53,267 nucleotides of DNA from an uncultured Christensenella sp. (GTDB lineage: Bacteria > Bacillota > Clostridia > Christensenellales > DTU072), in assembly GCA_964620655.1 (NCBI GenBank), contig CAZUJW010000007.1:1-53267 (forward strand), read 5' to 3'. Under the pieces are notes generated by a model. The model did not search any database. It was not told where the DNA came from and saw only the letters and a program-made list of their open reading frames with translations. The position numbers and the translations under genes are program-made. Below, piece by piece: positions 161 through 44,104 of this stretch (its first letter is position 1; the number at the start of each line of letters is the position of its first letter).

Positions 161-168
161 CTTGGCGG
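161..168 (+). other. Putative attL core CTTGGCGG
   Basis: Identical to 12064-12071. The sequence to its left forms a TCCGAA..TTCGGA hairpin that would follow the tRNA in the empty site. Confidence 0.65.
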
Positions 169-279
169 CACGGGTGAAAGTCAGATTGAATTATTGATAG
201 GAAAAACGATGTGTTTTGTTGTTGAAATTCTTTATTTCAAAGCAATTTAACAAGACCCTTGTACCATTCTTGATAACCT

Positions 280-302
280 TGTCGCAATAAGTAATTGCGG
301 CA
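280..302. promoter_or_regulatory. Imperfect palindrome TGTCGCAAT-N5-ATTGCGGCA
   Basis: 8 of 9 bp form an inverted repeat near the element left end; function unknown. Confidence 0.3.
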
Positions 303-361
303 CAAACAAAGTCGGAACAGCGACAATTAAAATTTGCCATTGCTCCTATTCCTTCTATTTT

Positions 362-402
362 AATCCACTGTTAATAAAAACATAAAATCCAAACAGTGGA
401 TT
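362..402. promoter_or_regulatory. 11-bp perfect inverted repeat, candidate operator
   Basis: AATCCACTGTT-N19-AACAGTGGATT immediately upstream of the -35 box of the HTH/rhuM promoter. Confidence 0.5.
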
Positions 403-407
403 TATGA

Positions 408-436
408 TTGATTTTTTGCGAGTTATATGGTATAAT
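408..436 (+). promoter_or_regulatory. sigmaA promoter
   Basis: TTGATT-17-TATAAT, with TG of an extended -10. Confidence 0.65.
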
Positions 437-471
437 CGGTTAAAGAGTTTTATTTGAGGCGGTGCGATAAG

Positions 472-684
472 ATGAAGGTAAGCTACAAAAAACTATGGAA
501 ACTCCTTATCGATAAGGATATGAAGAAAAAAGATTTGCGGATTGCTACGGGAATAACCACGACGGCACTTGCGAAGCTCGGCAAAAACGAACACGTCAGC
601 ACCGAAATTCTTGCAAGAATCTGCAAAGTTCTGAATTGTGATATCGGAGACATTGTTGAAGTCGTGAACGAGGAGAAAGAATGA
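472..684 (+). CDS. Cro/C1-type (XRE, HTH_26-like) transcriptional regulator
   Basis: MKVSYKKLWKLLIDKDMKKKDL...CDIGDIVE is the typical small clostridial HTH; ATG 472 follows GAGG. Confidence 0.9.
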   Translation: MKVSYKKLWKLLIDKDMKKKDLRIATGITTTALAKLGKNEHVSTEILARICKVLNCDIGDIVEVVNEEKE

Positions 685-1694
685 TGCCGAACGAAATTCA
701 ATTTGTATTATATAATATCGACAAAGAAGATGTAAACGTAAAAGTCGCCATAAAAGACGACACAATCTGGGTTACGCAACGCGGTATGGCGGAGCTTTTT
801 GATTGCTCTGCCGACAATATTTCTTTGCACTTAAAAAACATTTATCAAGACGGAGAATTACAAGAGTCTGCAACTGCCGAGGATTTCTCGGTAGTTCAGA
901 TCGAGGGTTCTCGTCAAGTATCGAGAAATTTAAAGTTTTATAATCTCGACGCCATTATATCCGTCGGATACCGCGTAAACTCTCGTCGCGCCACACAATT
1001 CCGCATCTGGGCGACGAACGTATTGAGGGAATTTATCCAAAAAGGCTTTGTGCTTGACGACGACCGCTTGAAGCAAGGCGAAAGCGTTTTCGGGAAGGAT
1101 TATTTCCGCGAGTTGCTCGAAAGAGTCCGTTCAATCCGCGCGAGCGAGCGCAGAATATGGCAACAAATCACCGATATTTTTGCCGAATGCAGTATAGATT
1201 ACGATAAAAATTCCCCCGTCACGCAAGAATTTTACGCCACCGTGCAAAACAAATTCCATTATGCCATTACGGGACAAACGGCGGCGGAAATTATTTACGA
1301 CAAAGCAGACAGCAAAAAAGACCATATGGGACTTACGACGTGGAAAAACTCCCCCGACGGAAGAATTTTAAAATCCGACGTAACCATAGCCAAAAACTAT
1401 CTCGACGAAAAACAGATACGCAGGCTGGAAAGAACTGTGTCCGGATTTTTCGATTATGTGGAAGATTTAATCGAAGAAGAACGCACCTTTACAATGCGGC
1501 AATTTGCAGAATCCATAAATGCGTTTTTAGAGTTCCGCAAATACAAGATTTTGCAAGGTAAAGGCTCGGTCTCAAAACTCGAAGCCGACAGAAAAGCCGA
1601 ACGGGAGTACGACGCGTTCAACAGAACGCAACAAATAACGTCCGACTTCGACAGACAAGTCAAAAAACTGCTTGACGGCAAAAAAGATGATTAA
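681..1694 (+). CDS. rhuM: RhuM-family (virulence RhuM) DNA-binding protein
   Basis: Motifs W.TQ..MAELF, YNLDAIISVGYRVNS.RATQFR.WAT, GLTTWKNSP.GRILKSDV.IAKNYL. Confidence 0.9.
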   Translation: MMPNEIQFVLYNIDKEDVNVKVAIKDDTIWVTQRGMAELFDCSADNISLHLKNIYQDGELQESATAEDFSVVQIEGSRQVSRNLKFYNLDAIISVGYRVNSRRATQFRIWATNVLREFIQKGFVLDDDRLKQGESVFGKDYFRELLERVRSIRASERRIWQQITDIFAECSIDYDKNSPVTQEFYATVQNKFHYAITGQTAAEIIYDKADSKKDHMGLTTWKNSPDGRILKSDVTIAKNYLDEKQIRRLERTVSGFFDYVEDLIEEERTFTMRQFAESINAFLEFRKYKILQGKGSVSKLEADRKAEREYDAFNRTQQITSDFDRQVKKLLDGKKDD

Positions 1695-1742
1695 TTTTTA
1701 ATACAATCAAATTTATTTAGTAGTAATAAGGAGAAACAGTTT

Positions 1743-3443
1743 ATGCCGACGTTGGAATGGATAGGAAAGGAAAAAGTAATCAATCATCATCAGGACGTGC
1801 CTTTCCGTCTGTTGGATAAAAAATATACGTACAATGCGGAAAACTCCGAAAATATGATTATTCATGGGGACAATCTGCTTGCGCTTAAATCCCTTCTTCC
1901 CGAATACGAAGGGAGGGTTGATTGCATTTACATAGATCCGCCGTATAATACAGGGAAAAAGGAAGGACAATGGGTCTATAGCGACAATGTGAATGACCCA
2001 AGAATTAAAAAATGGATCGGCGAAGTGGTTGGCACAGAAGGCGAAGATTTATCAAGACACGATAAGTGGCTCTGTATGATGTATCCTAGATTAAAACTTT
2101 TACACAAATTGCTGTCTAACAAAGGTGTTATTTTTATTAGTATTGATGACAATGAGTTAGCGAGCCTTAAACTGTGTTGCGATGAAATTTTCGGCTCTAG
2201 TAATTTCATAGGATATCTTTCCGTTGAAATAAACCCAAAAGAAAGAAAAAATTCGGATTATATATCTATTAGCAACGATTATTGTGTTATATACGCTAAA
2301 AATAAAAAAGATACATATTTCTTGGAGAATATTCCTAAGGATAAAAAAGATTTATCTGTTGATGAAAACGGAAATTTAGTTCATAACAGTGGCAAACGTG
2401 TACTAGTCGGTGAAAATTCATTTAATAATATAGTTCAAGATTTTAACTCTAAAAAGCATTATACTGTTTACTATAACGCTGAACAATGTGATATGATATT
2501 AAAAAAAGAAACATCGTTAAGCGAGATGGACGACAAGTTGATATCTAAAGGATATGTGAGATATTGTTCTTACTCCGCTGAAAACTTTGTAGAAAACACT
2601 TATACTGCTGAAAAAATAGTTGAACTGTTTGAAAATAAAGCTTTAGACTTTAAAAATGGGAAAATTTACGAAAAGAATTTTAGCAGTTCTATTAGAATAA
2701 AAAGCATTCTTTCAAATAGAAATTATCAAACTTACGATTCTAATGGAAATATTATAGATTATAAAATAGATGTAAAAACTACTTCGGCTGGACAAGAATT
2801 AAAAGACATTTTTGAAACAACGGCTACGATTTTCAATAATCCTAAAAATAAAGGGTTGATAGAAATTCTAATTTCTTTGATTGACAATAAAAACGCCTTG
2901 GTTTTAGACTCTTTTGGCGGCTCAGGGACAACCGCACATGCTGTTTTAGACTTAAACAAAAAAGGCGGCAATAGAAGATTCATTCTCGTGGAAATGATGG
3001 ACTATGCTGACACCGTTACTGCCGAGAGGGTGAAACGTGTAATTGACGGTTACGGTGAAGGAAATAAAGCGGTTGAAGGATTGGGCGGAGATTTTTCTTA
3101 TTACGAGTTAGGTATGCCCCTTTTCGACGAGGATAAAAATCTGAACGAGGACGTGCCGGAAAAAGAAATCCGCAAGTACGTTTACTATATGGAAACGAAA
3201 CAGCGGATAGAAGCGCATACGGACGACAACGAGTATTTTCTCGGCAAGCACAACGATACGGCGTATTACTTCTACTACGAAAAAGAAAGATTGACCACGT
3301 TAAACGCGGAATTTCTTGCTACCGTAAAGACAAAGGCGACAGGGTATCTGATTTACGCCGATGTGTGCGCGCTTGCAAAAGACATGCTGGACGAATACGG
3401 GATTACATTCAAAAAAATTCCGCGCGACATTAAAAAACTGTAA
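1743..3443 (+). CDS. mod: Type III restriction-modification DNA methyltransferase (Mod)
   Basis: GDNL..LK, IYIDPPYN catalytic motif, VLDSFGGSGTT SAM-binding motif; directly upstream of Res. Confidence 0.9.
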   Translation: MPTLEWIGKEKVINHHQDVPFRLLDKKYTYNAENSENMIIHGDNLLALKSLLPEYEGRVDCIYIDPPYNTGKKEGQWVYSDNVNDPRIKKWIGEVVGTEGEDLSRHDKWLCMMYPRLKLLHKLLSNKGVIFISIDDNELASLKLCCDEIFGSSNFIGYLSVEINPKERKNSDYISISNDYCVIYAKNKKDTYFLENIPKDKKDLSVDENGNLVHNSGKRVLVGENSFNNIVQDFNSKKHYTVYYNAEQCDMILKKETSLSEMDDKLISKGYVRYCSYSAENFVENTYTAEKIVELFENKALDFKNGKIYEKNFSSSIRIKSILSNRNYQTYDSNGNIIDYKIDVKTTSAGQELKDIFETTATIFNNPKNKGLIEILISLIDNKNALVLDSFGGSGTTAHAVLDLNKKGGNRRFILVEMMDYADTVTAERVKRVIDGYGEGNKAVEGLGGDFSYYELGMPLFDEDKNLNEDVPEKEIRKYVYYMETKQRIEAHTDDNEYFLGKHNDTAYYFYYEKERLTTLNAEFLATVKTKATGYLIYADVCALAKDMLDEYGITFKKIPRDIKKL

Positions 3444-3453
3444 GAGGTGGGAT

Positions 3454-6048
3454 ATGGAATTAAAGAATTTTCAGAAACGAGTGATAAACGACCTTAACAG
3501 ATATTGCGAACTCCTGAACGAAACGGACAGTGTTTCGGGCGCGTACAAAGCGTTCTGGGCGGAAAAGAACGTTACGGTAGGTTTCGGAGGTATGCCCTCT
3601 TACAACAATACGATTGAAAACACTCCGCACGTTTGTTTCAAGGTGCCGACGGGCGGCGGAAAAACCTTTCTGGCGTGCAACGCCTTAAAAACCATTTTCG
3701 GCAATTTGCCGAGCAAGAAGGCGCAACTCGTCGTGTGGCTTGTGCCGTCGGAGGCGATTCTGTCGCAGACGTTGAAAAATCTTTCCGATCCTATGCACGA
3801 TTACAGGCGGAAAATCGAAGCGGATTTTAACGGGCGCGTGCAGGTTTACAGCAAACAGCAGGTTTTGGACGGGCAACAATTCAATCCGACGACGGTGAAC
3901 GAACAACTCAGTATCGTCGTTATGAGTTTCGACAGTTTCCGCATAAAGAACAAGGAAGGTCGTAAGGTATATCAGGAAAACGGGAATTTACAGTCCTTTT
4001 CAAAGTTTATCCCCACGCCCGACACTCGTATAAAGGACGTGGACGACACCGCGCTTATTCAGGTATTCAATCAACTTTCGCCCGTAGTTATCGTGGACGA
4101 AAGCCACCATACCACCGGCGAACTCAGTATCGAGATGCTAAAAAATCTCAACCCGAGTTTTATTCTCGACCTTACGGCAACTCCAAGACAAAACAGCAAT
4201 ATTATTTCATACGTAGACGCGGCGCAACTCAAAGCCGAAAATATGGTAAAACTGCCCGTCATCGTGTATAATCGTCCTTCGCAGGAAGAAGTGATTGCCG
4301 ACGCACTGGATTTGAGAAATAAACTGGAAGAAACGGCACGCGCCGAAGCGAGCGGAAGATATATTCGTCCTATCGTGTTGTTTCAGGCGCAACCCAAACA
4401 AGCCGAAAATAAGGAAACGTTTGAAAAACTTAAAAAACGGCTTGTAGATAACGGTATTCCCGAAGAAGAAATCGCCATCAAAACGGCGGAAATAAACGAA
4501 CTGAAAAGCGTAGACTTACAATCGTCCGATTGCAAAATCAAGTACATAATTACTGTAAATGCGCTTAAAGAAGGTTGGGATTGTCCGTTTGCGTATATTC
4601 TCGCAACGCTTGCAAACAAGAAATCTACCGTTGACGTAGAACAGATTTTAGGGCGAGTTCTGCGGTTGCCATATACGCAACAGAATGACAGTAAGTTTTT
4701 GAATTTGTCTTACGTGCTTACCTGCTCCAACGACTTCCATATGACGATTACGAAAGTAATAAAGGGCTTGAACGACGCAGGTTTCAGCGAAAAAGAATAT
4801 CGTATTGCCGAAGAAAAACCGATTGTAACAACGCCGGTACCCGTTCAGGAAAAAGTAGATTTCGTCACGGAAGAAGAATTTTTGCAATTTGACGACGATG
4901 CGTTGAAAGAGATTATCGACCGCAGACAAAATGCGGACGAAACGAACGTAATCGACGCTATGCTCGAAAGCGCGGAGGCAAACAGCGACGCTTATGACAC
5001 CGCATTAAAACAAGCGGAAGCGGAACCCGTAGGCGATTTGCCGTTGGAGGTGAGAAGCAAAGTGAACACATATCCTATTTACGAGCAATTCAGGGAAGAA
5101 GCATTGTCGCTCGAAATCCCGCAGTTTTTTGTTAAAACACCGCCGAGCATTTTTACAATGCTCAATCCCGATGATAAATCTCTTTTGGCAAAAGAAGATT
5201 TGTCGGACGGTTTTATGCTCAAAGACAAGGATGCAACCATAGATTTCGGCTCGGCTTTGGAATCCGTCGTTGAGGTTGACGTTCAAAAGAACGAGCGTCC
5301 GAAATACAGACAACTATCCGAAACGGAAAGCGAATACTTCAAAGGAATGTTGAAGAATTTGCCGCCAGAAAGCCGTGTAAGAAACTGCAAATTGGCGATA
5401 AAAAGTATTCTGGAAAAGACGGACAGCGTTGCGGGAAGTGATTTAACGGCGTATATCAATCGTATCGTCGAAAATATGAACGGCGACGAACTTGTTGCTA
5501 TGGAAAATAATATTTACGGGTATGCGGCGAAAATCAAATCGAAGATTGAAACGCTGCTCCACGAATACCGCAGACAAAAATTCAATCACCTGCTTGAAAC
5601 GGGGCAGATAGAATGTCTGCCGTCGTTCAGATTAAAAAGAGAAATCAATCCGGGAACTCCGTTTGGACTTCTTTCAAAGTCGCTTTATACGTCGGAACAA
5701 GCGATTAATAATTTTGAACGCAAAGTTATCGAAAAAGTATCTGCACTGCCCAACTTCAGGTGGTGGCACAGAAATATGGACAGGCTTGAGTTTTTCATAA
5801 ACGGATTTTTGAACCACTATCCCGATTTTATCGTAATGACAAACAGCGGAAAAGTCGTTATGATAGAAACCAAAGGCGAACATCTTGTATCCAACGATGA
5901 TAGTCGCGCAAAAGCGGAACTCGGTAAAATCTGGCAGGCACAAGCAGGAGGACAGTATCGTTATTATATGGTTGGTGAATACGACGTCGCAAGCAATCCG
6001 AACGCTATATCCCTCGACGAATTATTAAAGATAATGAGCGAGTTGTAA
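3454..6048 (+). CDS. res: Type III restriction endonuclease / helicase subunit (Res)
   Basis: PTGGGKT Walker A, DESHH, LTATP, LKEGWD, QILGRVLR, C-terminal YPDF..IETKG nuclease motif. Start reassigned to ATG 3454 after the GAGGTGG RBS. Confidence 0.9.
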   Translation: MELKNFQKRVINDLNRYCELLNETDSVSGAYKAFWAEKNVTVGFGGMPSYNNTIENTPHVCFKVPTGGGKTFLACNALKTIFGNLPSKKAQLVVWLVPSEAILSQTLKNLSDPMHDYRRKIEADFNGRVQVYSKQQVLDGQQFNPTTVNEQLSIVVMSFDSFRIKNKEGRKVYQENGNLQSFSKFIPTPDTRIKDVDDTALIQVFNQLSPVVIVDESHHTTGELSIEMLKNLNPSFILDLTATPRQNSNIISYVDAAQLKAENMVKLPVIVYNRPSQEEVIADALDLRNKLEETARAEASGRYIRPIVLFQAQPKQAENKETFEKLKKRLVDNGIPEEEIAIKTAEINELKSVDLQSSDCKIKYIITVNALKEGWDCPFAYILATLANKKSTVDVEQILGRVLRLPYTQQNDSKFLNLSYVLTCSNDFHMTITKVIKGLNDAGFSEKEYRIAEEKPIVTTPVPVQEKVDFVTEEEFLQFDDDALKEIIDRRQNADETNVIDAMLESAEANSDAYDTALKQAEAEPVGDLPLEVRSKVNTYPIYEQFREEALSLEIPQFFVKTPPSIFTMLNPDDKSLLAKEDLSDGFMLKDKDATIDFGSALESVVEVDVQKNERPKYRQLSETESEYFKGMLKNLPPESRVRNCKLAIKSILEKTDSVAGSDLTAYINRIVENMNGDELVAMENNIYGYAAKIKSKIETLLHEYRRQKFNHLLETGQIECLPSFRLKREINPGTPFGLLSKSLYTSEQAINNFERKVIEKVSALPNFRWWHRNMDRLEFFINGFLNHYPDFIVMTNSGKVVMIETKGEHLVSNDDSRAKAELGKIWQAQAGGQYRYYMVGEYDVASNPNAISLDELLKIMSEL

Positions 6049-6136
6049 CTGAACAAAGATATTCTTGTTTAGTGTGGTGATCTTTATTGTTTTTTTCGGA
6101 ATAATATGATAAAATAAAATTAGGAGGCGTTCTATA

Positions 6137-7015
6137 ATGAATAACAATAATATTCTTAATAGATTTTTCTCCAGGTCAATCCTTAATGAGATTGTAGTGA
6201 ATGGACACAACACTTGCTATGGAGAAATAATAAAAAGGTATTCCATTGATAAAGACGAAACGAATCAAACTATAATTTCGTCAATCTATTCGGTTTTAGC
6301 ATCTTCTCATCGAAATGAGTATTTTTATAAAAATACACTTTTGAACAATTTGATCATTAAAAAGCATAAATTGTATACAACCAAAGTGCTGACAGAACTG
6401 CCTATTAACAAGTCTATTGCCGATTTTATCACACTTAATGGAAAAGCTGTGGTATACGAAATAAAAACAGAATTAGATAACTTGGATAGAATCGAAGCAC
6501 AAATTCGAGATTATTATAAGTGTTTTCCCTTTGTTTGTATTGTTACTTGTAAAACACATTTGCCCAAAGTTAAGGAATTGTTCGCTAACACTAATGTTGG
6601 CATATATTGGTTTACTAACAGAAATGCTATCAAGGTGGAGCAAGAACCCCAACTGGAAGATTCTTATTTGGAATATGGCGCATTGTTTAAATTGCTACGA
6701 AAATATGAATTTGAAACCATATTGAAGAAAAATTTCCATTCATTGCCAAAAGTATCGCAATTTGATTATTATGCTGAATGCTATAAGTGGTTTATCAAAA
6801 TTGATATTAACAGAGTATTAAAAGATATGCTAGATATTCTAAAGCAACGTTGTATAATACGCGTCGAACAGTTTAATCAAGTTCCATTAGAATTAAAAAT
6901 GTTGGTGTACCAATCTAATTATACTGATAAACAGTATTCTATGCTGGAAACGTTCTTAAATTCAAAATATATCGACGGAGGGCTTGAAAATGTATTTCCC
7001 GTATTTGAGGGGTAG
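6137..7015 (+). CDS. sce7726-family protein, PD-(D/E)xK nuclease-like
   Basis: RNEYFYKN..., EL..NKSIADF...VYEIKTELDNLDR..QI.DY: a D..EIK nuclease-type motif; first gene of a trio. Confidence 0.75.
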   Translation: MNNNNILNRFFSRSILNEIVVNGHNTCYGEIIKRYSIDKDETNQTIISSIYSVLASSHRNEYFYKNTLLNNLIIKKHKLYTTKVLTELPINKSIADFITLNGKAVVYEIKTELDNLDRIEAQIRDYYKCFPFVCIVTCKTHLPKVKELFANTNVGIYWFTNRNAIKVEQEPQLEDSYLEYGALFKLLRKYEFETILKKNFHSLPKVSQFDYYAECYKWFIKIDINRVLKDMLDILKQRCIIRVEQFNQVPLELKMLVYQSNYTDKQYSMLETFLNSKYIDGGLENVFPVFEG

Positions 7016-7913
7016 ACAATTTGAATTGCTTGCAATTCGAGAACTAATCGAACATAACTGTATATCGAATAATATTATACCAATAATAGAACCTGTTAGA
7101 GCTTCTTCTACTTTGTTAAAAACGATTATTCAATGCAAAGAAGCAAAGCAGCATATTGCTTTTATAATAAACCCACATGTCGGATCTTTTTCTAAAGAGT
7201 TTAGAGAATTTGAAAAAAGTAACGAACTTTTAACAGCTATTAAAGATTCAACTATAAAGGCTTGCGTTGTAGATCAATCCATTAACGATCAAGTCAATCG
7301 TCTAACAAAGACCTTTAATTCATCAATAGAGGACTCCTTGTTTGTTTTCGATAAAAAGGATTATATTGAATCATATTTATTGGCCATCAATAATAGCCAC
7401 GCTAAATTCAATCTTATTCCAGATGAAAGGGATTTTCGTAGAAGTATTCGAGATAACAGAGTATTATTAAGTGATGCTTTTGACTCAAAAGATCGTAATT
7501 CTGACTATTCTGATGCGCCAGAATTGTATTCACGAGATCAAATATATTACAAAGAAGATGGGTATATAGGATTTGCGGATTATTCGATAGTAGGAAATAG
7601 GTTTTCGGAAGCAGGTTTTGCTCCATATTGTTTAGTTATACATATTGTTTATTTTGATGAGAAAAATCAATTACTAATTAGACATTTTAAATCATCTTCA
7701 AATGAAGATGCAACCGACCCTGCCAACAAATTTAGAGAAGCCTTACAAAAGTTGCTTTTATGGAATGAGAAACAAAAATTAGATACATATGCGATGCGTC
7801 AATTTAAAAAGATGTATGAAGATGGGGCCTATCCAGGATTAGGGACAATTAAAAAGTTATCATTAATGCACCATATAGAATTGGTAAACAAATTTCTTAA
7901 TGAACCGCTATGA
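6990..7913 (+). CDS. sce7725-family protein (Beta-protein-like)
   Basis: MYFPYLRGRQFELLA.REL, PIIEPV, GFADYSIVG...GFAPY...IH, GLG.IKKLS..HH. Start ATG 6990 follows GGAGG and overlaps the previous gene. Confidence 0.75.
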   Translation: MYFPYLRGRQFELLAIRELIEHNCISNNIIPIIEPVRASSTLLKTIIQCKEAKQHIAFIINPHVGSFSKEFREFEKSNELLTAIKDSTIKACVVDQSINDQVNRLTKTFNSSIEDSLFVFDKKDYIESYLLAINNSHAKFNLIPDERDFRRSIRDNRVLLSDAFDSKDRNSDYSDAPELYSRDQIYYKEDGYIGFADYSIVGNRFSEAGFAPYCLVIHIVYFDEKNQLLIRHFKSSSNEDATDPANKFREALQKLLLWNEKQKLDTYAMRQFKKMYEDGAYPGLGTIKKLSLMHHIELVNKFLNEPL

Positions 7914-8998
7914 AAATATGTAAAAATTGTTTTGCCGATATCGAATTGAAGACCATCGTTTCAAGCCATAGACAAATAGGCGTATGTGATATATGTGGAC
8001 ATGAGGATTATATTTATGACACGACCTTGAATAGTGCATTGATTGATACCATTGACGATTTTATGAATATTTATTCAAAAGCCAATGATGATACTCCTCA
8101 AAAATATAGGATGAACTTAGAAAAGGAACTAATTTATAATTGGAATATCTTTTCGATAAGTTGTGCATACAAAGTAAAGAAGATAGTAGATAGTATATAT
8201 GCATTTTCTGAAGACACAAAAAAGAGATTTGACACTACATTGTTTGATGGAGATGTATATATTCCTTACTTTTTAAATAGTGATTATTTAGAACTGCACT
8301 CTATTATTAAAAATAAACAGTGGGACGAGTTTACATATAGTATAAAACACATAAACAGGTATCACTCAGATATTTTAAACAAAGAACAACTTGATTGTTT
8401 TCTTGATCCACTGGTTATCGATATAAATATTGGTACGCATTTTTATAGGTCGCGCATTTCAGACATCAAAGGGTTTTCTGCTTCTGAAATGGGAATGCCT
8501 CCAACCGAAAGAGCTAGGGCGGGAAGAATAGGAGCGGAAGGAATCCCCTGCTTTTATCTGGCAAACGATGTCGATACATCTATAAAAGAAGTTCGGGCGG
8601 GGGCTTTTGATTATATTACGGTTGCAAAATATAAAGTTAAAAACCCTATTAAGGTTGTTGATTTGAGATTATTAGATCATATTAGTCCTTTTTCAATATC
8701 GGATCCAGCAACCCTTGCGATTAATCGAGAAACGTTATTAAGAATTAAATCTGAAGTAGAAAAACCTGTGCGGCTCATAGAAAACAGTATTGAATATGTT
8801 CCAATTCAGTTTATTTGTGATTACATTAGAAGTAAAGGATATGACGGAATAATTTACAGTAGCACAATGAGTACTACAGGGTACAATCTATCAGCATTCT
8901 CTTCAGAGAATTTCAAATTTGTGAGCAAAGCAGTATATTACATTAAAGATATATCAGTGGTTTCGGAAAAAGCGACAAAACACACAAAAATCGAATAA
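7910..8998 (+). CDS. RES-domain protein with N-terminal Cys/zinc motif
   Basis: CKNC..CDIC N-terminus; FYRSR, GR.GAEGIPCFYLA, EVR, YDGIIYSS carry the R/E/S signature; ATGA overlap with sce7725. Confidence 0.85.
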   Translation: MKICKNCFADIELKTIVSSHRQIGVCDICGHEDYIYDTTLNSALIDTIDDFMNIYSKANDDTPQKYRMNLEKELIYNWNIFSISCAYKVKKIVDSIYAFSEDTKKRFDTTLFDGDVYIPYFLNSDYLELHSIIKNKQWDEFTYSIKHINRYHSDILNKEQLDCFLDPLVIDINIGTHFYRSRISDIKGFSASEMGMPPTERARAGRIGAEGIPCFYLANDVDTSIKEVRAGAFDYITVAKYKVKNPIKVVDLRLLDHISPFSISDPATLAINRETLLRIKSEVEKPVRLIENSIEYVPIQFICDYIRSKGYDGIIYSSTMSTTGYNLSAFSSENFKFVSKAVYYIKDISVVSEKATKHTKIE

Positions 8999-9086
8999 TA
9001 CAGCTATGCTTTTGGGTAAGATTTTTTTATGAGTTTCTCTATTATATATTGACTTAGTTTTTAGAGAAAATCTCAATAACACAAAT

Positions 9087-9122
9087 AAGAAAGTCTGATT
9101 TCGGTCAGTCTTTCTTTTTTTG
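9087..9122 (+). terminator. Rho-independent terminator after the RES gene
   Basis: AAGAAAG-T-CTGA / TCAG-T-CTTTCTT stem plus T tract. Confidence 0.65.
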
Positions 9123-9165
9123 CGTAGTTGTCAAAAAAATTTTTGCAATTTTTTCTTAATAACCT

Positions 9166-9546
9166 TGTAAAACCCATTGTCAAATGTCCTATATAAGTGA
9201 GGGACATTTTTCTTTTGCGAAAAACACGAAGTTTTTGCCCTCTATTGTCCATATAAAGAGAAAAAATCTTTGCCTTAATGAAAAGTTTCCAGTAAACCAT
9301 TAAGTTTCGTACCGAAAATGTCCAATATAAATAGAAGGAGTTTTAAGATTTTTTCTAAAACACCCCGCCAAAAGGTATGGTAAGTGTCCAATTATAGTAG
9401 GAGGATTTTTTGAAAAAGTTCAGTTAAATACCCTAACAAAGAGATGAAAACTTTCCAATATAAATAGAGGATATTTTCAAAAACTTACGAAAAACACCCC
9501 CTCAAACAGGCAAGCAAATGTCCATATATAGTGAACGGAAAAGGAG
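9166..9546 (+). repeat. Degenerate six-unit array, period about 61-73 bp
   Basis: TCC(A)ATATA..AG..G(A)GG cores with TCC at 9187, 9248, 9321, 9387, 9454 and 9521; four are preceded by AAA(C/T)AC 22-23 bp upstream. Confidence 0.7.
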
Positions 9547-9795
9547 ATAACAGATCATGAGTTACAAACAAGTGTACCCGCCTTAGCAGGCAGAAAACGG
9601 AAAGCAAAAGCCCAAAAAAAAATTGGAAAACGAGTACTTTTTACAAGCAGGATAAGGTTTTTGCAATCTATTTCAAAAACGATACGCTGAACAAGTCGGA
9701 AACCGACTTTTCGGAAAGGGCAACATTTGCTCGTATCCACAAGAAGAAATCGCCCTACTCTTACTAAAAATATCGGCGGACTAACGAAAAAGCAC

Positions 9796-9824
9796 TTGAC
9801 TTACGCACACAAAGCGTGTAAAAT
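9796..9824 (+). promoter_or_regulatory. sigmaA promoter for the RHH-recombinase module
   Basis: TTGACT-17-TAAAAT; the spacer contains the palindrome ACGC-N7-GCGT. Confidence 0.65.
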
Positions 9825-9871
9825 ATAGTCGTCGTATTAATACGATTATATATTCACGGAGGAATGAAAAG

Positions 9872-10162
9872 ATGGCAAAGTCAAGAAAGGAAAAAGACAA
9901 AAGATACGAAGAAAGGCACAAGGAAGAACGCAAAGCCAAAAACGTTATATGGGGAACGAGCGTTCCGAGAAAGACGGCGGAAGAAATAAACGAGTTTCTG
10001 AAAAAGTGCGGCTATACGAAGGTAGAACTTATACAGGCGGGCTACGAAGAACTGTTAGCCCGACACGATACCGCCTTTGCAAAATTAAAGGACGGCTACG
10101 ACGACTTTTTCGAGAGCGAACTTACGAAATTCGCAGAAGAAAGAAACACAAACAAAACATAA
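9872..10162 (+). CDS. Small protein, ribbon-helix-helix-like
   Basis: GGAGG RBS; a charged N-terminus is followed by a beta(VIWGTSVP)-helix-G-helix pattern. Confidence 0.6.
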   Translation: MAKSRKEKDKRYEERHKEERKAKNVIWGTSVPRKTAEEINEFLKKCGYTKVELIQAGYEELLARHDTAFAKLKDGYDDFFESELTKFAEERNTNKT

Positions 10163-10285
10163 TCCGTAAGACGAGATACTCTCGCCTTGCGGAAATCTGA
10201 GATAAGGAGGATTTTGCGGTAATGGTGAGAGAACATTACAGCCATCAGGAAAGAGAACATAGTATCCGCGCAATAAGTATGAACG

Positions 10286-10483
10286 TTGAAGCGGATACAA
10301 GAAAACACCGTTGAGGTCAATCTGTCAACGGAACACAAAGAAAAAGGCAGATTAAATCTGCCGAAAGAAAGAATACAAACAAGCGCAAAAATTTTAGCCG
10401 ATATTTTACTCGATTATGCGAGAAACGGCGGTAATATGGACGATTTAACGCCCGAGAGCGTATTCGGCAGGAGGAAGCAATGA
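10286..10483 (+). CDS. Small hypothetical protein overlapping the recombinase start
   Basis: 65-aa ORF with TTG start and weak RBS; its stop overlaps the recombinase ATG. Confidence 0.4.
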   Translation: MKRIQENTVEVNLSTEHKEKGRLNLPKERIQTSAKILADILLDYARNGGNMDDLTPESVFGRRKQ

Positions 10484-12105
10484 AAAAACGAGTAGTGATA
10501 TATGCAAGATTCAGTTCGCACAGTCAGACGGAACAGTCTATCGAAGGACAACTTCGGGAATGCTACGAGTATGCAAAAAGACAAGACCTTCTCGTTGTAG
10601 CCGAATACATAGACCGTGCGCTCACGGGGACTACGGACAAACGACCGGAATTTTTAAGAATGATTGAGGACAGTAAGAAAAAGACTTTCGACTATGTTCT
10701 TGTTTACCAACTTGATCGCTTTGCCCGTAACCGTTACGACAGCGCGAATTACAAAGCAAAGTTAAAGAAAAACGGCGTACGTGTTCTATCTGCAAAGGAA
10801 AACATAACGGAAGACGCAAGCGGAATTTTAATCGAGGGCGTGCTGGAAAGTATGGCGGAATATTATTCCGCCGAACTTTCGCAAAAGGTAAAACGCGGAA
10901 TACGCGAAAGCTACGAAAAAGGTTACTTCATCGGCGGATACGGTTTATTTGGTTATGATATCGTAGATAAAAAATGGGTAATAAACTCTTTTGAAGCAGA
11001 TATTGTCAGAGATATTTTTACAAGATACAAAAATGGCGAAAAGGCGAAAGAAATTATTGCAAGGCTGATCGGACAAGGCATTAAGACGAAAGCCGGTTCG
11101 TCGTTCAATATGAACAGTCTTGCAAGGATAATCCGCAACGAAAAATACATCGGGAAAGTAACTTCGCACGACACGGTTTACACTAACGTCATACCGCCTA
11201 TCGTGGACGAAGAACTTTTTTATGAATGCAACGCCATTATGGACAAGCATAAACATAAACCGCGCGACAGCAAGAGCGAACAGCCATATATTTTAAGCGG
11301 AAAATTGTTTTGCGGATTTTGCGGTAGTCTGATGACCGCCGAAACGGGGACAAGCCATACAGGTAAACTTCATCACTATTACAAGTGTTTCGGAAGAAAA
11401 CGCAACAAACACAGTTGTAAAAAGGCAAATTACAGACAGCAAGACCTTGAAGATCTGGTATTCGGCACGACGGTTAAATACGTTCTGCAACCCGACGTAA
11501 TTCAAACCGTTGCCGAACAGGTCGTTTCAAAATTCAATTCGGAGATAACAAAGACCGCAACGCTTGAAAATCTCGAAAACGAGTTGAAAGCCAAAGAAAA
11601 AGCGATAAATGCACTGCTTGCCGCCATAGAACAAGGCATAGTGACTAAATCCACCAAAGAACGACTGATTTCTCTCGAAACGCAAAAAGAGGAATTAGAG
11701 AGCAAAATTTCTCTTGAAAAGGCTCGGCAGATAAAACCGCTCGAAGTGGACAGAGTAAAAGCGTTTTTAACCTATTTTGCCCGTAAAAAGTATGAAAACG
11801 GGCAAGAAAAAAACGAGTTTTTCAACTCGTTCATAAACCGTGTTATTTTGTATGACGACAAAATTTTAATCTTTTACAACACCGACGATAATCACCCGAC
11901 GGTAATTAAGAGGAAAGACACGGAAGAATTTATTTCGCACTTTAATGACATAGCGAGCAACTGCAAAACCGCAACAAACGACTGTCCGAACACAACGGGA
12001 AACAACAGCCCCATCGTACAAAAGGAAAACTCGCTTGAACCTCAATGGTTCAAACGAGTTTCACTTGGCGGAGCCGAAGGGATTCGAACCCTTGTGCCAA
12101 GTTAA
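10480..12105 (+). CDS. Large serine recombinase (integrase)
   Basis: YARFSS catalytic Ser, SIEGQ, LDRFARN, recombinase domain, LSGKLFCGFCG..YYKC zinc ribbon and coiled coil. The last ~13 codons are read from the tRNA antisense strand. Confidence 0.95.
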   Translation: MKKRVVIYARFSSHSQTEQSIEGQLRECYEYAKRQDLLVVAEYIDRALTGTTDKRPEFLRMIEDSKKKTFDYVLVYQLDRFARNRYDSANYKAKLKKNGVRVLSAKENITEDASGILIEGVLESMAEYYSAELSQKVKRGIRESYEKGYFIGGYGLFGYDIVDKKWVINSFEADIVRDIFTRYKNGEKAKEIIARLIGQGIKTKAGSSFNMNSLARIIRNEKYIGKVTSHDTVYTNVIPPIVDEELFYECNAIMDKHKHKPRDSKSEQPYILSGKLFCGFCGSLMTAETGTSHTGKLHHYYKCFGRKRNKHSCKKANYRQQDLEDLVFGTTVKYVLQPDVIQTVAEQVVSKFNSEITKTATLENLENELKAKEKAINALLAAIEQGIVTKSTKERLISLETQKEELESKISLEKARQIKPLEVDRVKAFLTYFARKKYENGQEKNEFFNSFINRVILYDDKILIFYNTDDNHPTVIKRKDTEEFISHFNDIASNCKTATNDCPNTTGNNSPIVQKENSLEPQWFKRVSLGGAEGIRTLVPS

Positions 12106-12156
12106 TGGCTAACGCATTTCGAGTGCGCCCCGTTATGACCACTTCGATACAGCTCC
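12066..12156 (-). tRNA. tRNA-Ser(CGA)
   Basis: Reverse complement GGAGCTG..GCGCA-CTCGAAA-TGCGT, long variable arm, AAGGG-TTCGAAT-CCCTT, CGGCTCC-GCCA. Confidence 0.97.
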
Positions 12157-26886: not shown

Positions 26887-29592
26887 ATGGCAGAAAAAAC
26901 CTATGCAATCGTTGACGGCGTGGAAAAACTCGAAGAAGCGATAAAGAGAGTGAGAGCCGCGCAGAAAAAGTTTGCTACCTACACGCAGGAACAAGTTGAC
27001 AAAATCTTCTTTGCAGCGGCGTGCGCCGCAGACAAGATGAGAATTCCGCTCGCTAAAATGGCGGTGGAAGAGACCGGAATGGGTATAGTCGAAGACAAGG
27101 TGATAAAGAATCACTACGCCGCCGAATATATCTACAATGCGTACAGAGATACCCGTACCTGCGGAGTAATAGAAGGAGACAAGGCTTTCGGAATAAAGAA
27201 AATCGCCGAGCCGATAGGACTCGTTGCGGCGGTTATTCCGACGACCAACCCCACTTCGACCGCTATATTCAAGACCCTTATCTGTCTGAAAACAAGAAAC
27301 GGTATAATAATAAGCCCGCATCCGAGAGCAAAGAAGTCGACGATAGCCGCGGCTAAGGTCGTACTCGAAGCGGCAGTGGAGGCGGGAGCTCCCGAAGACA
27401 TAATAGGTTGGATAGACGTGCCGTCTCTCGATATGACCAATTTAATAATGAAAGAAGCCGACATAATACTCGCTACCGGCGGTCCCGGTATGGTTAAGGC
27501 GGCTTACAGTTCGGGCAAACCCGCTTTGGGCGTGGGTGCGGGCAACACTCCCGCAATAATCGACGAAACCGCCGATATAACCTTAGCGGTAAACTCCATT
27601 ATCCACAGCAAAACTTTCGACAACGGTATGATTTGCGCTTCCGAACAGTCGGTAATCGTACTCGACTCCGTGTACGATACGGTCAAGGGAGAGTTCGCAA
27701 GCCGCGGTTGCTATTTCCTTAACAAGGAAGAAACCGAAAAGGTAAGAAAGACTATTATAATAAACGGCGCGCTCAACGCAAAAATCGTCGGACAAAGCGC
27801 CGCTAAGATAGCCGCTCTTGCCGGCGTAATCGTACCGGAAGGAACGAAAATTCTTATAGGCGAAGTCGAGAGCGTGGAACTTTCGGAAGAATTCGCGCAC
27901 GAAAAACTTTCTCCCGTACTCGCAATGTACAGAGCCGCCGATATTCGGGACGCTTTCGGAAAAGCAGAGCAGCTCGTAGCCGACGGCGGATACGGACATA
28001 CTTCGTCCATTTATCTTAACGTAAACACCGAGCAGGAAAAACTTGAAGAATTCCAGAGCAGAATGAAGACTTGCAGAATTTTGGTCAACACTCCGTCTTC
28101 GCAGGGCGGAATAGGCGACCTTTACAACTTCAAATTGCGTCCGTCGCTCACGCTCGGTTGCGGCAGCTGGGGCGGTAACTCCGTTTCGGAAAACGTAGGA
28201 GTAAAACATCTTATCAATATAAAAACAGTAGCGGAAAGGAGAGAAAATATGCTTTGGTTCAGAGCTCCCGAAAAGGTATATATAAAGAAAGGTTGCTTAC
28301 CCGTAGCTCTCGACGAATTAAAAACCGTCATGGGCAAGAAAAAATGTTTCATCGTTACCGACAGTTTTCTTTATAATTACGGTTACACTAAGCCTATCAC
28401 CGACAAGCTCGACGAAATGGGTATAGCTCACACCGCTTTCTTCGACGTGGCTCCCGATCCTACTCTCGCTTGCGCGAAGGAAGGCGCGGCTCAGATGAGA
28501 GCCTTCAAGCCCGACTGCATCATAGCTTTGGGCGGCGGTTCTGCTATGGACGCAGGCAAAATCATGTGGGTTATGTACGAACATCCCGAAGTGGACTTTA
28601 TGGATATGGCTATGCGTTTTATGGACATAAGAAAGCGTGTCTATACCTTCCCGAAGATGGGCGAAAAAGCGTACTTTATCGCTATACCGACTTCCGCGGG
28701 AACGGGCAGCGAAGTTACTCCCTTCGCGGTAATCACCGACGAAAAGACGGGAGTCAAGTATCCGCTCGCAGACTATGAATTGTTACCCAAAATGGCAATT
28801 ATAGATACCGATTTTCATATGAGCGCGCCGAAAGGACTTACCGCCGCAAGCGGTATCGACGCGGTTACGCACGCATTGGAAGCGTACGCGTCCATGATGG
28901 CTACCGACTACACCGACGGACTTGCTCTCAAAGCCCTGAAGACTATCTTTACCTATCTTCCGAGAGCTTACGACAACGGTCTTAACGACGTCGAAGCGAG
29001 AGAAAAAATGGCTAACGCCGCCACTATGGCAGGTATGGCTTTCGCCAATGCTTTCTTAGGAGTATGCCACTCCATGGCGCACAAATTAGGTGCCTTCCAT
29101 CATCTCCCGCACGGGGTAGCCAACGCTCTTATGATAGACGAAGTGTTGCGTTTCAACGCCGCCGAAGTTCCCGCAAAGATGGGTACTTTTCCGCAGTACG
29201 GATATCCTCACACTCTCGCCCGTTACGCCGAAGTAGCCGACTATCTCGGAATAAAAGGGGAAAACGACCAAGAAAAGCTTGACAATTTGATAAAAGAGAT
29301 AGATAAATTAAAAGAGAGAGTAGGAATTAAGGCTACGATAAAGGAATACGTGCCCGACGAAACGGATTTTCTTGATAGATTGGACGCAATGGTAGAGCAG
29401 GCTTTCGACGACCAATGCACCGGAGCTAATCCGAGATATCCTCTTATGAGCGAGATAAAACAAATGTATCTCGACGCTTACTACGGAAAGACCTTTACCG
29501 AAAAGGAAATTCCTGCCTATGAAATAAAGAAAGAAACCGACGTTCACGACTTTAAGGAAGTTTATCGCAAAAATAAACCCACACGCAAATAA
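26887..29592 (+). CDS. adhE: Bifunctional acetaldehyde-CoA/alcohol dehydrogenase
   Basis: ALDH domain (FDNGMICASEQ, LTLGCGSWGGNS), Fe-ADH domain (GGGSAMD, HSMAHKLG, HGVANA). Confidence 0.97.
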   Translation: MAEKTYAIVDGVEKLEEAIKRVRAAQKKFATYTQEQVDKIFFAAACAADKMRIPLAKMAVEETGMGIVEDKVIKNHYAAEYIYNAYRDTRTCGVIEGDKAFGIKKIAEPIGLVAAVIPTTNPTSTAIFKTLICLKTRNGIIISPHPRAKKSTIAAAKVVLEAAVEAGAPEDIIGWIDVPSLDMTNLIMKEADIILATGGPGMVKAAYSSGKPALGVGAGNTPAIIDETADITLAVNSIIHSKTFDNGMICASEQSVIVLDSVYDTVKGEFASRGCYFLNKEETEKVRKTIIINGALNAKIVGQSAAKIAALAGVIVPEGTKILIGEVESVELSEEFAHEKLSPVLAMYRAADIRDAFGKAEQLVADGGYGHTSSIYLNVNTEQEKLEEFQSRMKTCRILVNTPSSQGGIGDLYNFKLRPSLTLGCGSWGGNSVSENVGVKHLINIKTVAERRENMLWFRAPEKVYIKKGCLPVALDELKTVMGKKKCFIVTDSFLYNYGYTKPITDKLDEMGIAHTAFFDVAPDPTLACAKEGAAQMRAFKPDCIIALGGGSAMDAGKIMWVMYEHPEVDFMDMAMRFMDIRKRVYTFPKMGEKAYFIAIPTSAGTGSEVTPFAVITDEKTGVKYPLADYELLPKMAIIDTDFHMSAPKGLTAASGIDAVTHALEAYASMMATDYTDGLALKALKTIFTYLPRAYDNGLNDVEAREKMANAATMAGMAFANAFLGVCHSMAHKLGAFHHLPHGVANALMIDEVLRFNAAEVPAKMGTFPQYGYPHTLARYAEVADYLGIKGENDQEKLDNLIKEIDKLKERVGIKATIKEYVPDETDFLDRLDAMVEQAFDDQCTGANPRYPLMSEIKQMYLDAYYGKTFTEKEIPAYEIKKETDVHDFKEVYRKNKPTRK

Positions 29593-29605
29593 GGGAGGTA
29601 GCGTT

Positions 29606-30355
29606 ATGAATTTAGACAGAGTTATTGCCGTAAGGAACAATAAGACCGTCTACCGCGACGGCGACAATTGCGTAAAGGTATTCGACAGCGAGTTTTCCAA
29701 GGCGGATATCCTTAACGAAGCTCTCAATCAGGCAAGAGTGGAAGAAACGGGACTCAATATTCCGAAAATAAAGGAAGTGACGACTATCGACGGAAAGTGG
29801 GCTATCGTATCCGAGTTTATAAAAGGCAAGACCTTAGCCAGACTTATGGAAGAAAATCCCGAAAAGAAACACGAATATCTCGAAAAGTTCGTGGACTTAC
29901 AGATAGAAGTTCAGTCCAAAAGATGTCCCCTTCTCAACAAACTGAAAGACAAGATGAACAGAAAAATCTCGCAGGCGGATCTGGACGCAACCACCCGTTA
30001 CGACCTTCATACTCGTCTCGAAGGGATGCCTAAGCACACCAAACTTTGCCACGGCGACTTCAACCCGTCCAACGTGATTATCGCGGAAGACGGAACGGCG
30101 TACATAATCGACTGGTCTCACGCAACGCAGGGCAACGCTTCCGCCGACGTGGCAAGAACGTATCTTTTGTTCTGGCTGGCGGGAGAAATAGACGACGCCA
30201 ACGAGTACCTTGACCTATTCTGCAAAAAAACCGACACCGCAAAACAGTACGTTCAGAAATGGATGCCGATAGTGGCGGCTTCGCAGTCGGTAAAAGGAAA
30301 CGAAAAAGAAAGAGAATTCCTTCTCTCGTGGGTAGACGTGGTAGATTACGAATAA
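29606..30355 (+). CDS. APH/kinase-like phosphotransferase (putative Ser/Thr kinase of the adhE-hydS cluster)
   Basis: CHGDFNPSN and IIDW kinase motifs. Confidence 0.85.
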   Translation: MNLDRVIAVRNNKTVYRDGDNCVKVFDSEFSKADILNEALNQARVEETGLNIPKIKEVTTIDGKWAIVSEFIKGKTLARLMEENPEKKHEYLEKFVDLQIEVQSKRCPLLNKLKDKMNRKISQADLDATTRYDLHTRLEGMPKHTKLCHGDFNPSNVIIAEDGTAYIIDWSHATQGNASADVARTYLLFWLAGEIDDANEYLDLFCKKTDTAKQYVQKWMPIVAASQSVKGNEKEREFLLSWVDVVDYE

Positions 30356-30369
30356 AAGGAGAAAAAATT

Positions 30370-30615
30370 ATGGTTAAGATTATGGTATGTATAGGTAGTT
30401 CCTGTCACCTTAAAGGCTCTCGTCAGGTAGTGGAACAGCTCCAGTATCTCATCGGAGAAAATGGGCTTAAAGACAAAGTCGAACTCGGCGGAACTTTTTG
30501 TATGGGCAGATGTCAGGAAGGCGTATGCGTAACGGTCGACGGCGAATTTTTCTCCGTGACTCCCGATACGGCGAAAGTGTTCTTTGAAGAAAACGTTCTT
30601 CCGAGAGTAAAATAA
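30370..30615 (+). CDS. Thioredoxin-like [2Fe-2S] ferredoxin (HfsA-like), copy 1
   Basis: VCIGSSCHLKGS, FCMGRC; start reassigned to ATG 30370 after AAGGAG. Confidence 0.88.
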   Translation: MVKIMVCIGSSCHLKGSRQVVEQLQYLIGENGLKDKVELGGTFCMGRCQEGVCVTVDGEFFSVTPDTAKVFFEENVLPRVK

Positions 30616-30629
30616 AAGGAAGTAAAAAA

Positions 30630-30890
30630 ATGGTGATTATACAAGTGTGCGTTGGCAGTTCTTGTCACCTTAAAGGAGCTCCGCAGATAGTGGAGCTCTT
30701 GCAAAGACGCATAGCGGAAGAAAAGCTGGAAGACGAAATAGTGCTTACCGGTAGTTTTTGTGCAGGCAAGTGCAATCGCGTAGGTGTGACCGTTACGATA
30801 AACGACGATATATACCCGGGAATTACCGTCGAGAACTTTAACGAGTTCTGGAACGATAAAATTATGCCCACCGTTATAAAAAACAGATAA
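30630..30890 (+). CDS. Thioredoxin-like [2Fe-2S] ferredoxin (HfsA-like), copy 2
   Basis: VCVGSSCHLKGA, FCAGKC. Confidence 0.88.
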   Translation: MVIIQVCVGSSCHLKGAPQIVELLQRRIAEEKLEDEIVLTGSFCAGKCNRVGVTVTINDDIYPGITVENFNEFWNDKIMPTVIKNR

Positions 30891-30915
30891 CAAAAGAAAA
30901 AAGGAAGTAAAAGCA

Positions 30916-31860: not shown

Positions 31861-31876
31861 AGGGGTAAATTCGTAA

Positions 31877-34715: not shown

Positions 34716-34734
34716 GGAGAAAAACGATAAGGAA

Positions 34735-36162: not shown

Positions 36163-36306
36163 TCGGAGTATATCGGAGAAAAAGTAAAAAATATTGAAAA
36201 AACACCTTTCTCCGATATTACAAAACGACAAAACAGTGATACAATATAGTTGATGAAAAAATACTTGATAAAGTAAAAAATAAATATATAAAGTGAGGTT
36301 ATTAAA

Positions 36307-37914: not shown

Positions 37915-38194
37915 CAAATAATTTACGATTAAGAAAAAACGGGATGTTAAGTGACGCAATGTTTCTTATCAGCCCGTTTTTTATTATTTGTTACGTTATT
38001 ATCATTATCGTCACGCAAACGCCCGAGAATACGAAAAAGCCTGCTCGGTTCCGTAAAAAATCAGCCTGCCTGCATATCCCAGGATTTTCCTGGATTTTGC
38101 GGTTTGGAGAGGAACATTTTCTAATGAAATTACTTGTCAAAAGTATGCGAAATGCGTATAATAAGTACAGAAAATCTAAAAAAAGAGTTCTCTT

Positions 38195-44018: not shown

Positions 44019-44028
44019 TTTTTTGTTT
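43989..44028. terminator. 18-bp perfect bidirectional terminator directly after tRNA-Arg
   Basis: AAACAAAAAAGCAACCGA-TATT-TCGGTTGCTTTTTTGTTT; partially duplicated near 43781-43810. Confidence 0.9.
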
Positions 44029-44104
44029 GGCGCGCCATAAGGAGCTCGAATCCCTAACCTTTGGTTCCGTAGACCAACGCTCTATCCAATTGAGCTAATG
44101 GCGC
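44028..44104 (-). tRNA. tRNA-Arg(ACG)
   Basis: Reverse complement GCGCCAT..TTGGT-CTACGGA-ACCAA..AGGGATTCGAGCTCCT-ATGGCGC-GCCA. Confidence 0.97.

Follow-up and report, generated by a model that had tools for sequence, protein, structure and literature searches.

A widespread operon joining an aRES-type RES-domain protein to a P4 cII/Beta-like pair: a candidate anti-phage system on a mobile island of an uncultured Christensenella sp.

Two described anti-phage systems are the closest relatives of the locus reported here. Rousset et al. (2022, PMC9122126) showed that the gop-beta-cII system of satellite phage P4, catalogued as Rst_gop_beta_cll in DefenseFinder and as gop_beta_cll in PADLOC, gives protection from lambda and P1. 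The same paper describes Gop as toxic without Beta, and the two proteins as acting as a toxin-antitoxin (TA) pair. Killing by gop-beta-cII is triggered by a phage accessory gene (bioRxiv 10.1101/2023.04.06.535777). The Sorek laboratory reported the second system, aRES, in a preprint of January 2026 (Osterman et al., bioRxiv 10.64898/2026.01.28.702374); its members are proteins of 300-600 amino acids (aa) in which Pfam PF18870 is combined with a RES domain. It was found in approximately 4% of genomes and protects E. coli from phages by converting nicotinamide adenine dinucleotide (NAD+) to nicotinamide and ADP-ribose-1''-phosphate (ADPR-1P); it is described as standalone and acting alone, and its detection requires PF18870 at an HHsearch probability above 80%. 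The present locus is an operon of three genes, sce7726-sce7725-RES (the trio), in a stretch of 53,267 nucleotides (nt) from an uncultured Christensenella sp. (contig CAZUJW010000007.1 of assembly GCA_964620655.1, positions 1 to 53,267; the window). It had been singled out as a candidate defence system from the sequence letters alone (the original prediction). What is new is a widespread three-gene combination that joins the aRES effector family to a cII/Beta-like pair, rather than a categorically new system. A general role in anti-phage defence is likely, because both halves have experimentally validated relatives. The original prediction held the trio to be uncharacterised as a system; no description of the three genes as a system was found in the literature searched, although both halves have such relatives. 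The features of the operon are as follows.

6137-7015, plus strand: sce7726-family/P4 cII-like gene (292 aa; NF033832 match)
6990-7913, plus strand: sce7725-family gene (307 aa; NF033831 match)
7910-8998, plus strand: aRES-type RES gene (362 aa; Pfam RES match)
6122-6127, plus strand: AGGAGG ribosome-binding site (RBS) of the first gene (sce7726), read from the sequence, 9 nt before the ATG at 6137
9087-9123, plus strand: intrinsic-terminator-like hairpin and U-run closing the operon, called from fold energy against shuffles

The third protein carries Pfam RES (PF08808; E 2.9e-14, 53.8 bits against a cut-off of 23.2, residues 190-340) behind an N-terminal domain of approximately residues 1-155 with a CxxC...CxxC arrangement (C4, C7, C26 and C29), which bears out the description of a RES-domain protein with a Cys-motif N-terminus. 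This N-terminus was matched weakly by PF18870 (HEPN_RES_NTD1) in hmmscan (E 0.18, profile positions 6-125 of 131), and the same profile was above its cut-off in the full-length RES orthologue P0020 (2.6e-7). Residues invariant or near-invariant in an alignment of 29 sequences were R180, R182, P197-P198, G205-R206, Y216 and E227, followed by N272, E282, Y296, Y316, S318 and N326; as read from the alignment, these conform to the R/E/S-type pattern expected of RES enzymes. Neither the window RES protein nor a profile of the trio RES proteins gave a sequence-level match to any PDB chain.

A standalone protein of 499 aa encoded on an E. coli IncI plasmid contains both PF18870 (6.7e-7) and RES (7e-16), and the trio-RES profile aligned with it over 322 columns covering both domains (hhalign probability 99.3%, E 5e-20). 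With the proteins from enterobacterial plasmids the window RES protein shares only about 23% identity, and it is without their C-terminal extension of about 120 aa. Relatedness to aRES was judged through this E. coli PF18870+RES protein rather than through the three tested aRES sequences. The likeness to aRES consists of a RES domain behind what is probably a HEPN_RES_NTD1 (PF18870) domain, a length of 362 aa within the range of 300-600 aa, and the R/E/S-type residues; both aRES and the trio RES also lie in defence islands and mobile elements. They differ in that aRES is standalone, whereas the trio RES comes last in an operon whose three-gene make-up hardly varies. Judged by architecture and homology, the third protein of the window is of aRES type, at odds with the 'standalone' description. 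The aRES pipeline as written has no neighbourhood filter, so RES proteins of the trio type are probably among its 1,526 aRES genomes. The Methods of the preprint cite the RES Pfam family as PF00808 (bioRxiv 10.64898/2026.01.28.702374); RES is PF08808.

The first protein of the operon matched the sce7726 family model NF033832 (2e-50, 171 bits against a cut-off of 70), the PADLOC model PDLC02989 'cll' (7.3e-14) and, by BLASTP, cII of P4 (3e-8). P4 cII is itself annotated as an sce7726 family protein in the NCBI P4 record, and orthologues of the window protein carry precomputed matches to Pfam PF26915 (Phage_P4_cII); on these comparisons, sce7726 is homologous to P4 cII. A core of E61...D96...E108-I-K110...D114...R118...Q122 was invariant across 15 sequences including P4 cII. 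It constitutes a PD-(D/E)xK-like motif, as originally pointed out for the D..EIK residues (here D96 and E108-I-K110), and the nuclease fold is putative. The motif thus stood, whereas the further designation of the protein as a 'sensor/nuclease' is a suggestion made at the level of the motif.

The middle protein matched NF033831 (1.2e-96, 324 bits against a cut-off of 60), and approximately 60 positions were invariant among 22 sequences of about 50% identity. Its AlphaFold2 model (predicted local distance difference test, pLDDT, 86; predicted template modelling score, pTM, 0.87) consists of alternating strands and helices. Foldseek comparison of the model with the PDB returned only weak matches to TIM barrels (best E 5e-3, template modelling score, TM, 0.3-0.36), namely designed barrels, glycosidases and class II aldolases, from which no enzymatic class could be assigned; sequence and profile searches yielded no sequence relative of sce7725 in the PDB. 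The approximately 60 invariant residues and the TIM-barrel-like predicted fold suggest catalysis or ligand binding; the protein resembles an enzyme, or something that binds a ligand, more than a passive partner or a means of simple sequestration.

An N-terminal motif, Y-[FY]-P-x-L-R-x-[RQ]-x-x-E-[LM], is common to P4 Beta and sce7725. The pairwise comparison of the two gave E 0.03, and Pfam Beta_protein (PF14350) matched the N-terminus of sce7725 only, below threshold (E 0.068); another sce7725 member carries a precomputed faint match to Beta_protein. Neither the beta nor the gop model of PADLOC matched any of the window proteins. An AlphaFold2 model was also obtained for Beta (a homologue 96% identical to P4 Beta, with the Beta-family alignment; pLDDT 90), and its secondary-structure elements follow a similar order to those of the sce7725 model. 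The two models have a single strong match in BFVD in common, an uncharacterised Gordonia phage protein (E 5e-13, TM 0.70 for Beta; E 7e-8, TM 0.52 for sce7725). These results point to sce7725 as a distant relative of Beta, outside PF14350; of the earlier label 'sce7725 (Beta-like)', the family call holds and the kinship with Beta is probably a distant one.

The trio resembles gop-beta-cII in its cII homologue, sce7726, with which cII has the core E...D...ExK...D..R...Q in common, and, more distantly, in the resemblance of sce7725 to Beta. Each is also a unit of three genes that mobile elements carry, and each includes a toxin, in the trio a presumed one. It differs in that Gop (133 aa, probably a membrane protein) is absent and an aRES-type enzyme is present instead. 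RES had no similarity to Gop (133-143 aa), which itself gave weak membrane-protein-like matches, and no small open reading frame (ORF) was present in the operon. A check for an already named system, using PADLOC and family hidden Markov models (HMMs), confirmed the three family names; in PADLOC-DB v2.0.0, at E up to 10, 'cll' alone was matched and nothing was returned for sce7725 or RES. The locus is thus not a catalogued PADLOC v2 system.

The breadth of the trio was determined by scanning one genome per GTDB species with an alignment of sce7725, which gave 382 relatives; the best 80 loci were fetched and screened with custom HMMs for the three families. The same genome scan with a single sce7725 protein as query gave no confirmed relative. 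Among the best 80 of the 382, a full-length RES gene directly followed sce7725, with the order kept, at 72 loci; the remaining eight comprised five cut by a contig end within approximately 1 kb, one with a RES fragment and two without RES. The full trio was consequently present in 72 of the 75 informative loci. Every RES homologue examined, to a lower limit of 38% identity, lay in the same three-gene arrangement, in unrelated neighbourhoods, and the order was retained even beside a distant sce7725 member. Junctions in 81 complete trios ranged from -35 to +12 nt, with an ATGA overlap in 32, and the pairwise-identity matrices of the three proteins were correlated at r = 0.91-0.95 across 72 non-redundant loci. 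Such tight junctions and correlated divergence indicate that the trio is inherited as a unit.

Trios were found in Bacillota, in Alpha-, Beta- and Gammaproteobacteria, in metagenome-assembled genomes (MAGs) of Melainabacteria and in one MAG labelled Odoribacter, a range that includes gut Lachnospiraceae and Listeria. Annotated examples are carried by plasmids of Moraxella osloensis, Rhizobium phaseoli and Shinella, and HMM screening detected the trio on an unannotated Ralstonia megaplasmid. Viral contigs from IMG/VR also contain it (L108 and L107, the latter having lost the first gene at its contig end), as does an unverified 7.8-kb 'Bacteriophage sp.' scaffold. A genome note on P. aeruginosa records an integrative mobilisable element in which all three annotations occur together (PMC9394441). 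Among 1.84 billion representatives, the sce7725 family as a whole accounted for 1,522 clusters at 50% identity (E <= 1e-3).

In the window, the genes are co-directional and overlap by 26 nt between the first and second and by 4 nt (ATGA) between the second and third. The start of the middle gene was placed at the ATG at 6990, 7 nt downstream of GGAGGG (6978-6983), whereas the ORF listing had begun at a TTG at 6984; gene callers arrived at the same length of 307 aa on near-identical contigs. The G+C content of the trio is 0.30-0.35, compared with 0.42-0.49 in the flanking res and recombinase regions. The account of three overlapping, translationally coupled and AT-richer genes was thereby upheld, and so was that of a terminator of their own. 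Approximately 90 nt past the last stop codon, a hairpin of 12 bp (9087-9116) followed by U7 has a fold energy of -18.6 kcal/mol (z = -5.7), and none of 200 shuffles folded as well. A consensus scan missed this hairpin, probably because of one stem mismatch.

The operon had also been credited with its own RBS and promoter region, of which the RBS (AGGAGG, 6122-6127) was found and the promoter was not. Scanning with the sigma-70 consensus gave 19 sites against 18.2 in shuffles, a result at chance level, and none lay in the 88-nt gap at 6049-6136. An extended -10-like sequence, TGATAAAAT, lies approximately 10 nt upstream of the AGGAGG RBS, and was picked out by eye with no statistical support. 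Nothing terminator-like was detected between the type III res gene and the trio, which are 88 nt apart, so that read-through from res is possible.

Taken together, these data make it rather probable that the trio is an abortive-infection-type anti-phage operon whose aRES-type effector is gated by the cII/Beta-like pair. The operon is cargo of a serine-recombinase island. In this mechanism sce7725 and sce7726 would together hold RES inactive and release it on a phage cue. The restraint would fall to sce7725, which is immediately upstream of RES and translationally coupled to it, by analogy with Beta keeping Gop harmless; sce7726 would sense infection or add a second activity. Once activated, RES would phosphorolyse NAD+ to nicotinamide and ADP-ribose-1''-phosphate, as do its homologues among aRES and the RES toxins, and the infected cell would be arrested. 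An NAD+-consuming effector acting by abortive infection had been put forward in the original prediction and draws support from homology to two validated systems; for the trio, NAD+ depletion is inferred from this homology, on which it is well founded, and the division into a sensing and a restraining partner and the trigger follow only from the P4 analogy and the anatomy of the operon.

Several observations weigh against this mechanism. The evidence on the members of the trio is computational, and aRES acts alone (bioRxiv 10.64898/2026.01.28.702374), so neither sensing nor control obviously calls for partners. The link between sce7725 and the Beta family is weak by hhalign (E 8e-4, probability 25%, 53 N-terminal columns), and sce7726, with its putative PD-(D/E)xK fold, had no Pfam or PDB sequence match. 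In gop-beta-cII, gop and beta run rightward and cII is convergent, a layout kept in P. aeruginosa homologues, whereas the cII-like, sce7725 and RES genes of the trio are co-directional. Tallies of defence genes neighbouring the trio are raw counts rather than enrichments. Finally, two sce7726/sce7725 pairs have no RES beside them, one of a phage (L109), where the pair is flanked by antirepressor and terminase genes, and one of a conjugative element (L120); the pair also occurs in the reversed order, sce7725 then sce7726, again without RES, in prophage contigs from IMG/VR (L110-L116). In six of these contigs (L110-L114 and L116) the reversed pair sits right after a lysogeny module of ImmA/IrrE peptidase and helix-turn-helix (HTH) genes; its companions include an HSDR_N/PD-(D/E)xK protein (L110) and a DUF4041+T5orf172 protein (L114). 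Since the pair occurs without RES, it may be self-sufficient, and the trio a fusion of two systems.

On that basis, one transcription unit would house two independent modules, an autonomous aRES and an autonomous sce7726/sce7725 pair with a nuclease-like effector. This is considered unlikely. aRES-type proteins do function alone and occur alone (L100 and L012), the pair is found without RES in phages and conjugative elements, even reversed, and defence genes commonly cluster; two autonomous modules are nevertheless difficult to reconcile with a fixed order and overlapping or nearly touching junctions in 81 loci across phyla, with three proteins that diverge in step (r 0.91-0.95), and with RES in 72 of 75 informative sce7725 loci. 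At 340-370 aa, the RES proteins of the trio are also shorter than the 499-aa standalone protein of E. coli, which would fit a function handed to partners.

The trio could alternatively be a TA-like addiction module that stabilises its mobile element, with RES as the toxin, sce7725 as the antitoxin and defence no more than a by-product. RES domains have long been recognised as toxins of TA systems (Skjerning et al. 2019, as cited in PMC9503650) and belong to the ADP-ribosyltransferase superfamily (PMC9503650). The trio resembles RES-Xre type II TA systems (MbcT/MbcA, ParT-type) in having a RES NAD+ phosphorylase as its toxic part and a translationally coupled partner upstream; the partner-before-toxin order with an ATGA overlap, the carriage on islands, plasmids and prophages, and the TA-like behaviour of Gop and Beta (PMC9122126) all speak for addiction. 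It differs from those systems in having no Xre/HTH antitoxin, a Pfam scan having found neither an HTH nor any other Pfam domain in sce7726 or sce7725, in having two partners, both large and conserved, where those systems have a single small antitoxin, and in the additional N-terminal domain of approximately 155 aa in its RES protein. A conserved protein of 307 aa is unlike labile antitoxins, a third conserved gene would be superfluous for addiction, and both of the closest relatives defend against phages. Addiction as the main role is accordingly thought improbable, to about the same degree as two autonomous modules, and the roles of addiction and defence are not mutually exclusive.

Very little credence is given to a nucleic-acid system centred on ADP-ribose, in which RES, instead of depleting NAD+, would ADP-ribosylate a macromolecule, mark it in another way or make a signal, and sce7725 and sce7726 would process or cut the marked target. 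It is prompted by the enzyme-like character of sce7725, by the placement of RES in the ADP-ribosyltransferase superfamily (PMC9503650) and by one locus with a macrodomain gene in the RES position (L086; Lachnospiraceae MAG CANPZE010000026, 5941-7005). That gene follows an intact pair and overlaps the sce7725 stop codon; its product, of 354 aa, is of MacroD type (E 9e-49 to MACROD2) with a C-terminal extension of approximately 190 aa. The possibility that it was a divergent RES was ruled out, the product being a macrodomain protein. This is, however, a single locus in approximately 120, all characterised RES enzymes are NAD+ phosphorylases, and the trio RES is homologous over its full length to a PF18870+RES protein of aRES type.

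The preferred reading, of a cII/Beta-like pair that gates an aRES-type effector, may have a more general form, which is doubtful. The cII/sce7726 and Beta/sce7725 proteins would constitute a general module for sensing infection and gating, driving third genes that can replace one another: in P4 the membrane toxin Gop, the aRES-type NAD+ phosphorylase in the trio and possibly GNAT or MacroD-type proteins at single loci. Beta/sce7725 would be a new family of TIM-barrel enzymes, and a small molecule, possibly related to ADP-ribose, that is made, destroyed or bound by Beta/sce7725 would couple sensing to the release of the effector. Were this correct, it would explain why aRES is free of partners in some lineages and locked to the pair in others. 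The GNAT acetyltransferase in question occupies the RES position on E. faecium plasmid p114-2 (L097; NZ_CP019972.1, 80354-82561). A 229-aa gene upstream of sce7725 on p114-2 was considered as a degenerate sce7726 and ruled out by hhalign. An sce7725 gene in 'Listeria phage LM 4-14-1' (OR848224.1, L117) was discarded as an instance of phage carriage; across 8 kb this record (UNVERIFIED_ORG, 10.5 kb) shares 99.85% identity with p114-2, and it is probably mislabelled. The existence of the pair without RES and the differing third genes support modular exchange of effectors and equally allow the view of two joined systems.

The trio links two validated systems that are mechanistically obscure, in gop-beta-cII with respect to the roles of Beta and cII and in aRES with respect to the sensing of infection. 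Its effector output is measurable, as loss of NAD+ and formation of ADPR-1P, and offers a readout for the activity of the cII/Beta-like partners. Current defence censuses probably miss the trio or score it as single-gene aRES, PADLOC giving a lone 'cll'. Two phage countermeasures known from aRES, the ADPR-1P phosphatase route and the aRad1 inhibitors, might also act on the three-gene form or might fail against it.

The trio is carried on an island of approximately 12 kb whose limits were determined by blastn against a metagenome contig (L014) with different flanking genes.

163-12151, no strand assigned: mobile island carrying the trio
454-684: HTH_26 (Pfam)
681-1694: RhuM (Pfam)
1743-3443: type III mod (Pfam)
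about 3448-6048: type III res (Pfam)
10480-12105: large serine recombinase, downstream of the trio, past a repeat array and a 96-aa ORF
12066-12156, minus strand: tRNA-Ser(CGA), at the right island end

Identity between the window and L014 is 93-94% over 163-12151, and tRNA-Ser(CGA) stands at the right island end in both. The serine recombinase ORF reaches 40 nt into this opposite-strand tRNA gene, and an 8-nt sequence, CTTGGCGG, matching the 3' end of the tRNA, recurs at the left island border (161-168). The setting thus agrees with the proposed position of the trio in a tRNA-integrated element right after mod-res, with HTH, RhuM, mod and res upstream and the large serine recombinase and tRNA-Ser(CGA) downstream. 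The sole part of the island without similarity to L014 is a segment of mod (2158-2907; G+C content 0.27-0.30), the mod protein having 566 aa in the window and 515 aa in L014; this segment has the appearance of an exchanged target-recognition domain in the type III methyltransferase. Between the trio terminator and the 96-aa ORF and serine recombinase lies an iteron-like array (9182-9535) of about six TGTCC(A/T)(A/T)TATA(A/T)A boxes, spaced approximately 66-67 nt apart inside longer degenerate repeats, and is possibly where replication or recombination of the island is controlled.

A related serine-recombinase island (L002) has a type II-like restriction-modification (R-M) pair beside a trio of 71% identity. 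The immediate neighbours of the trio in the 80 loci are mixed, with many genes for defence and mobility, which together with the type III R-M and RhuM cargo of the window island speaks for a defence role; they include HTH regulators, ResIII, GmrSD_N, PbeA, SspE, Cas3 and JetC, type I and type IV restriction enzymes (REase_I and mREase_IV), PDC-S01 and HEC-06, together with integrases, recombinases, transposases, IS66, relaxases and ordinary genes. The proposal that the trio backs up R-M is not borne out by neighbours that vary so widely, from R-M, GmrSD and PbeA to integrases, transposases and ordinary genes.

Elsewhere in the window, an AAA_14/DUF4143 ATPase gene (42294-43490, minus strand) lies near a tRNA-Arg gene (44028-44104); the same family also flanks the trio islands in L002 and L006, and the site may be another mobile or defence-associated spot. 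The backbone at 26887-41152 encodes AdhE, PEP carboxykinase, a 985-aa BspA-type leucine-rich-repeat protein and two [FeFe]-hydrogenase-like proteins that flank a SpoIIE-type phosphatase, and looks like that of an anaerobic spore-forming Firmicute.

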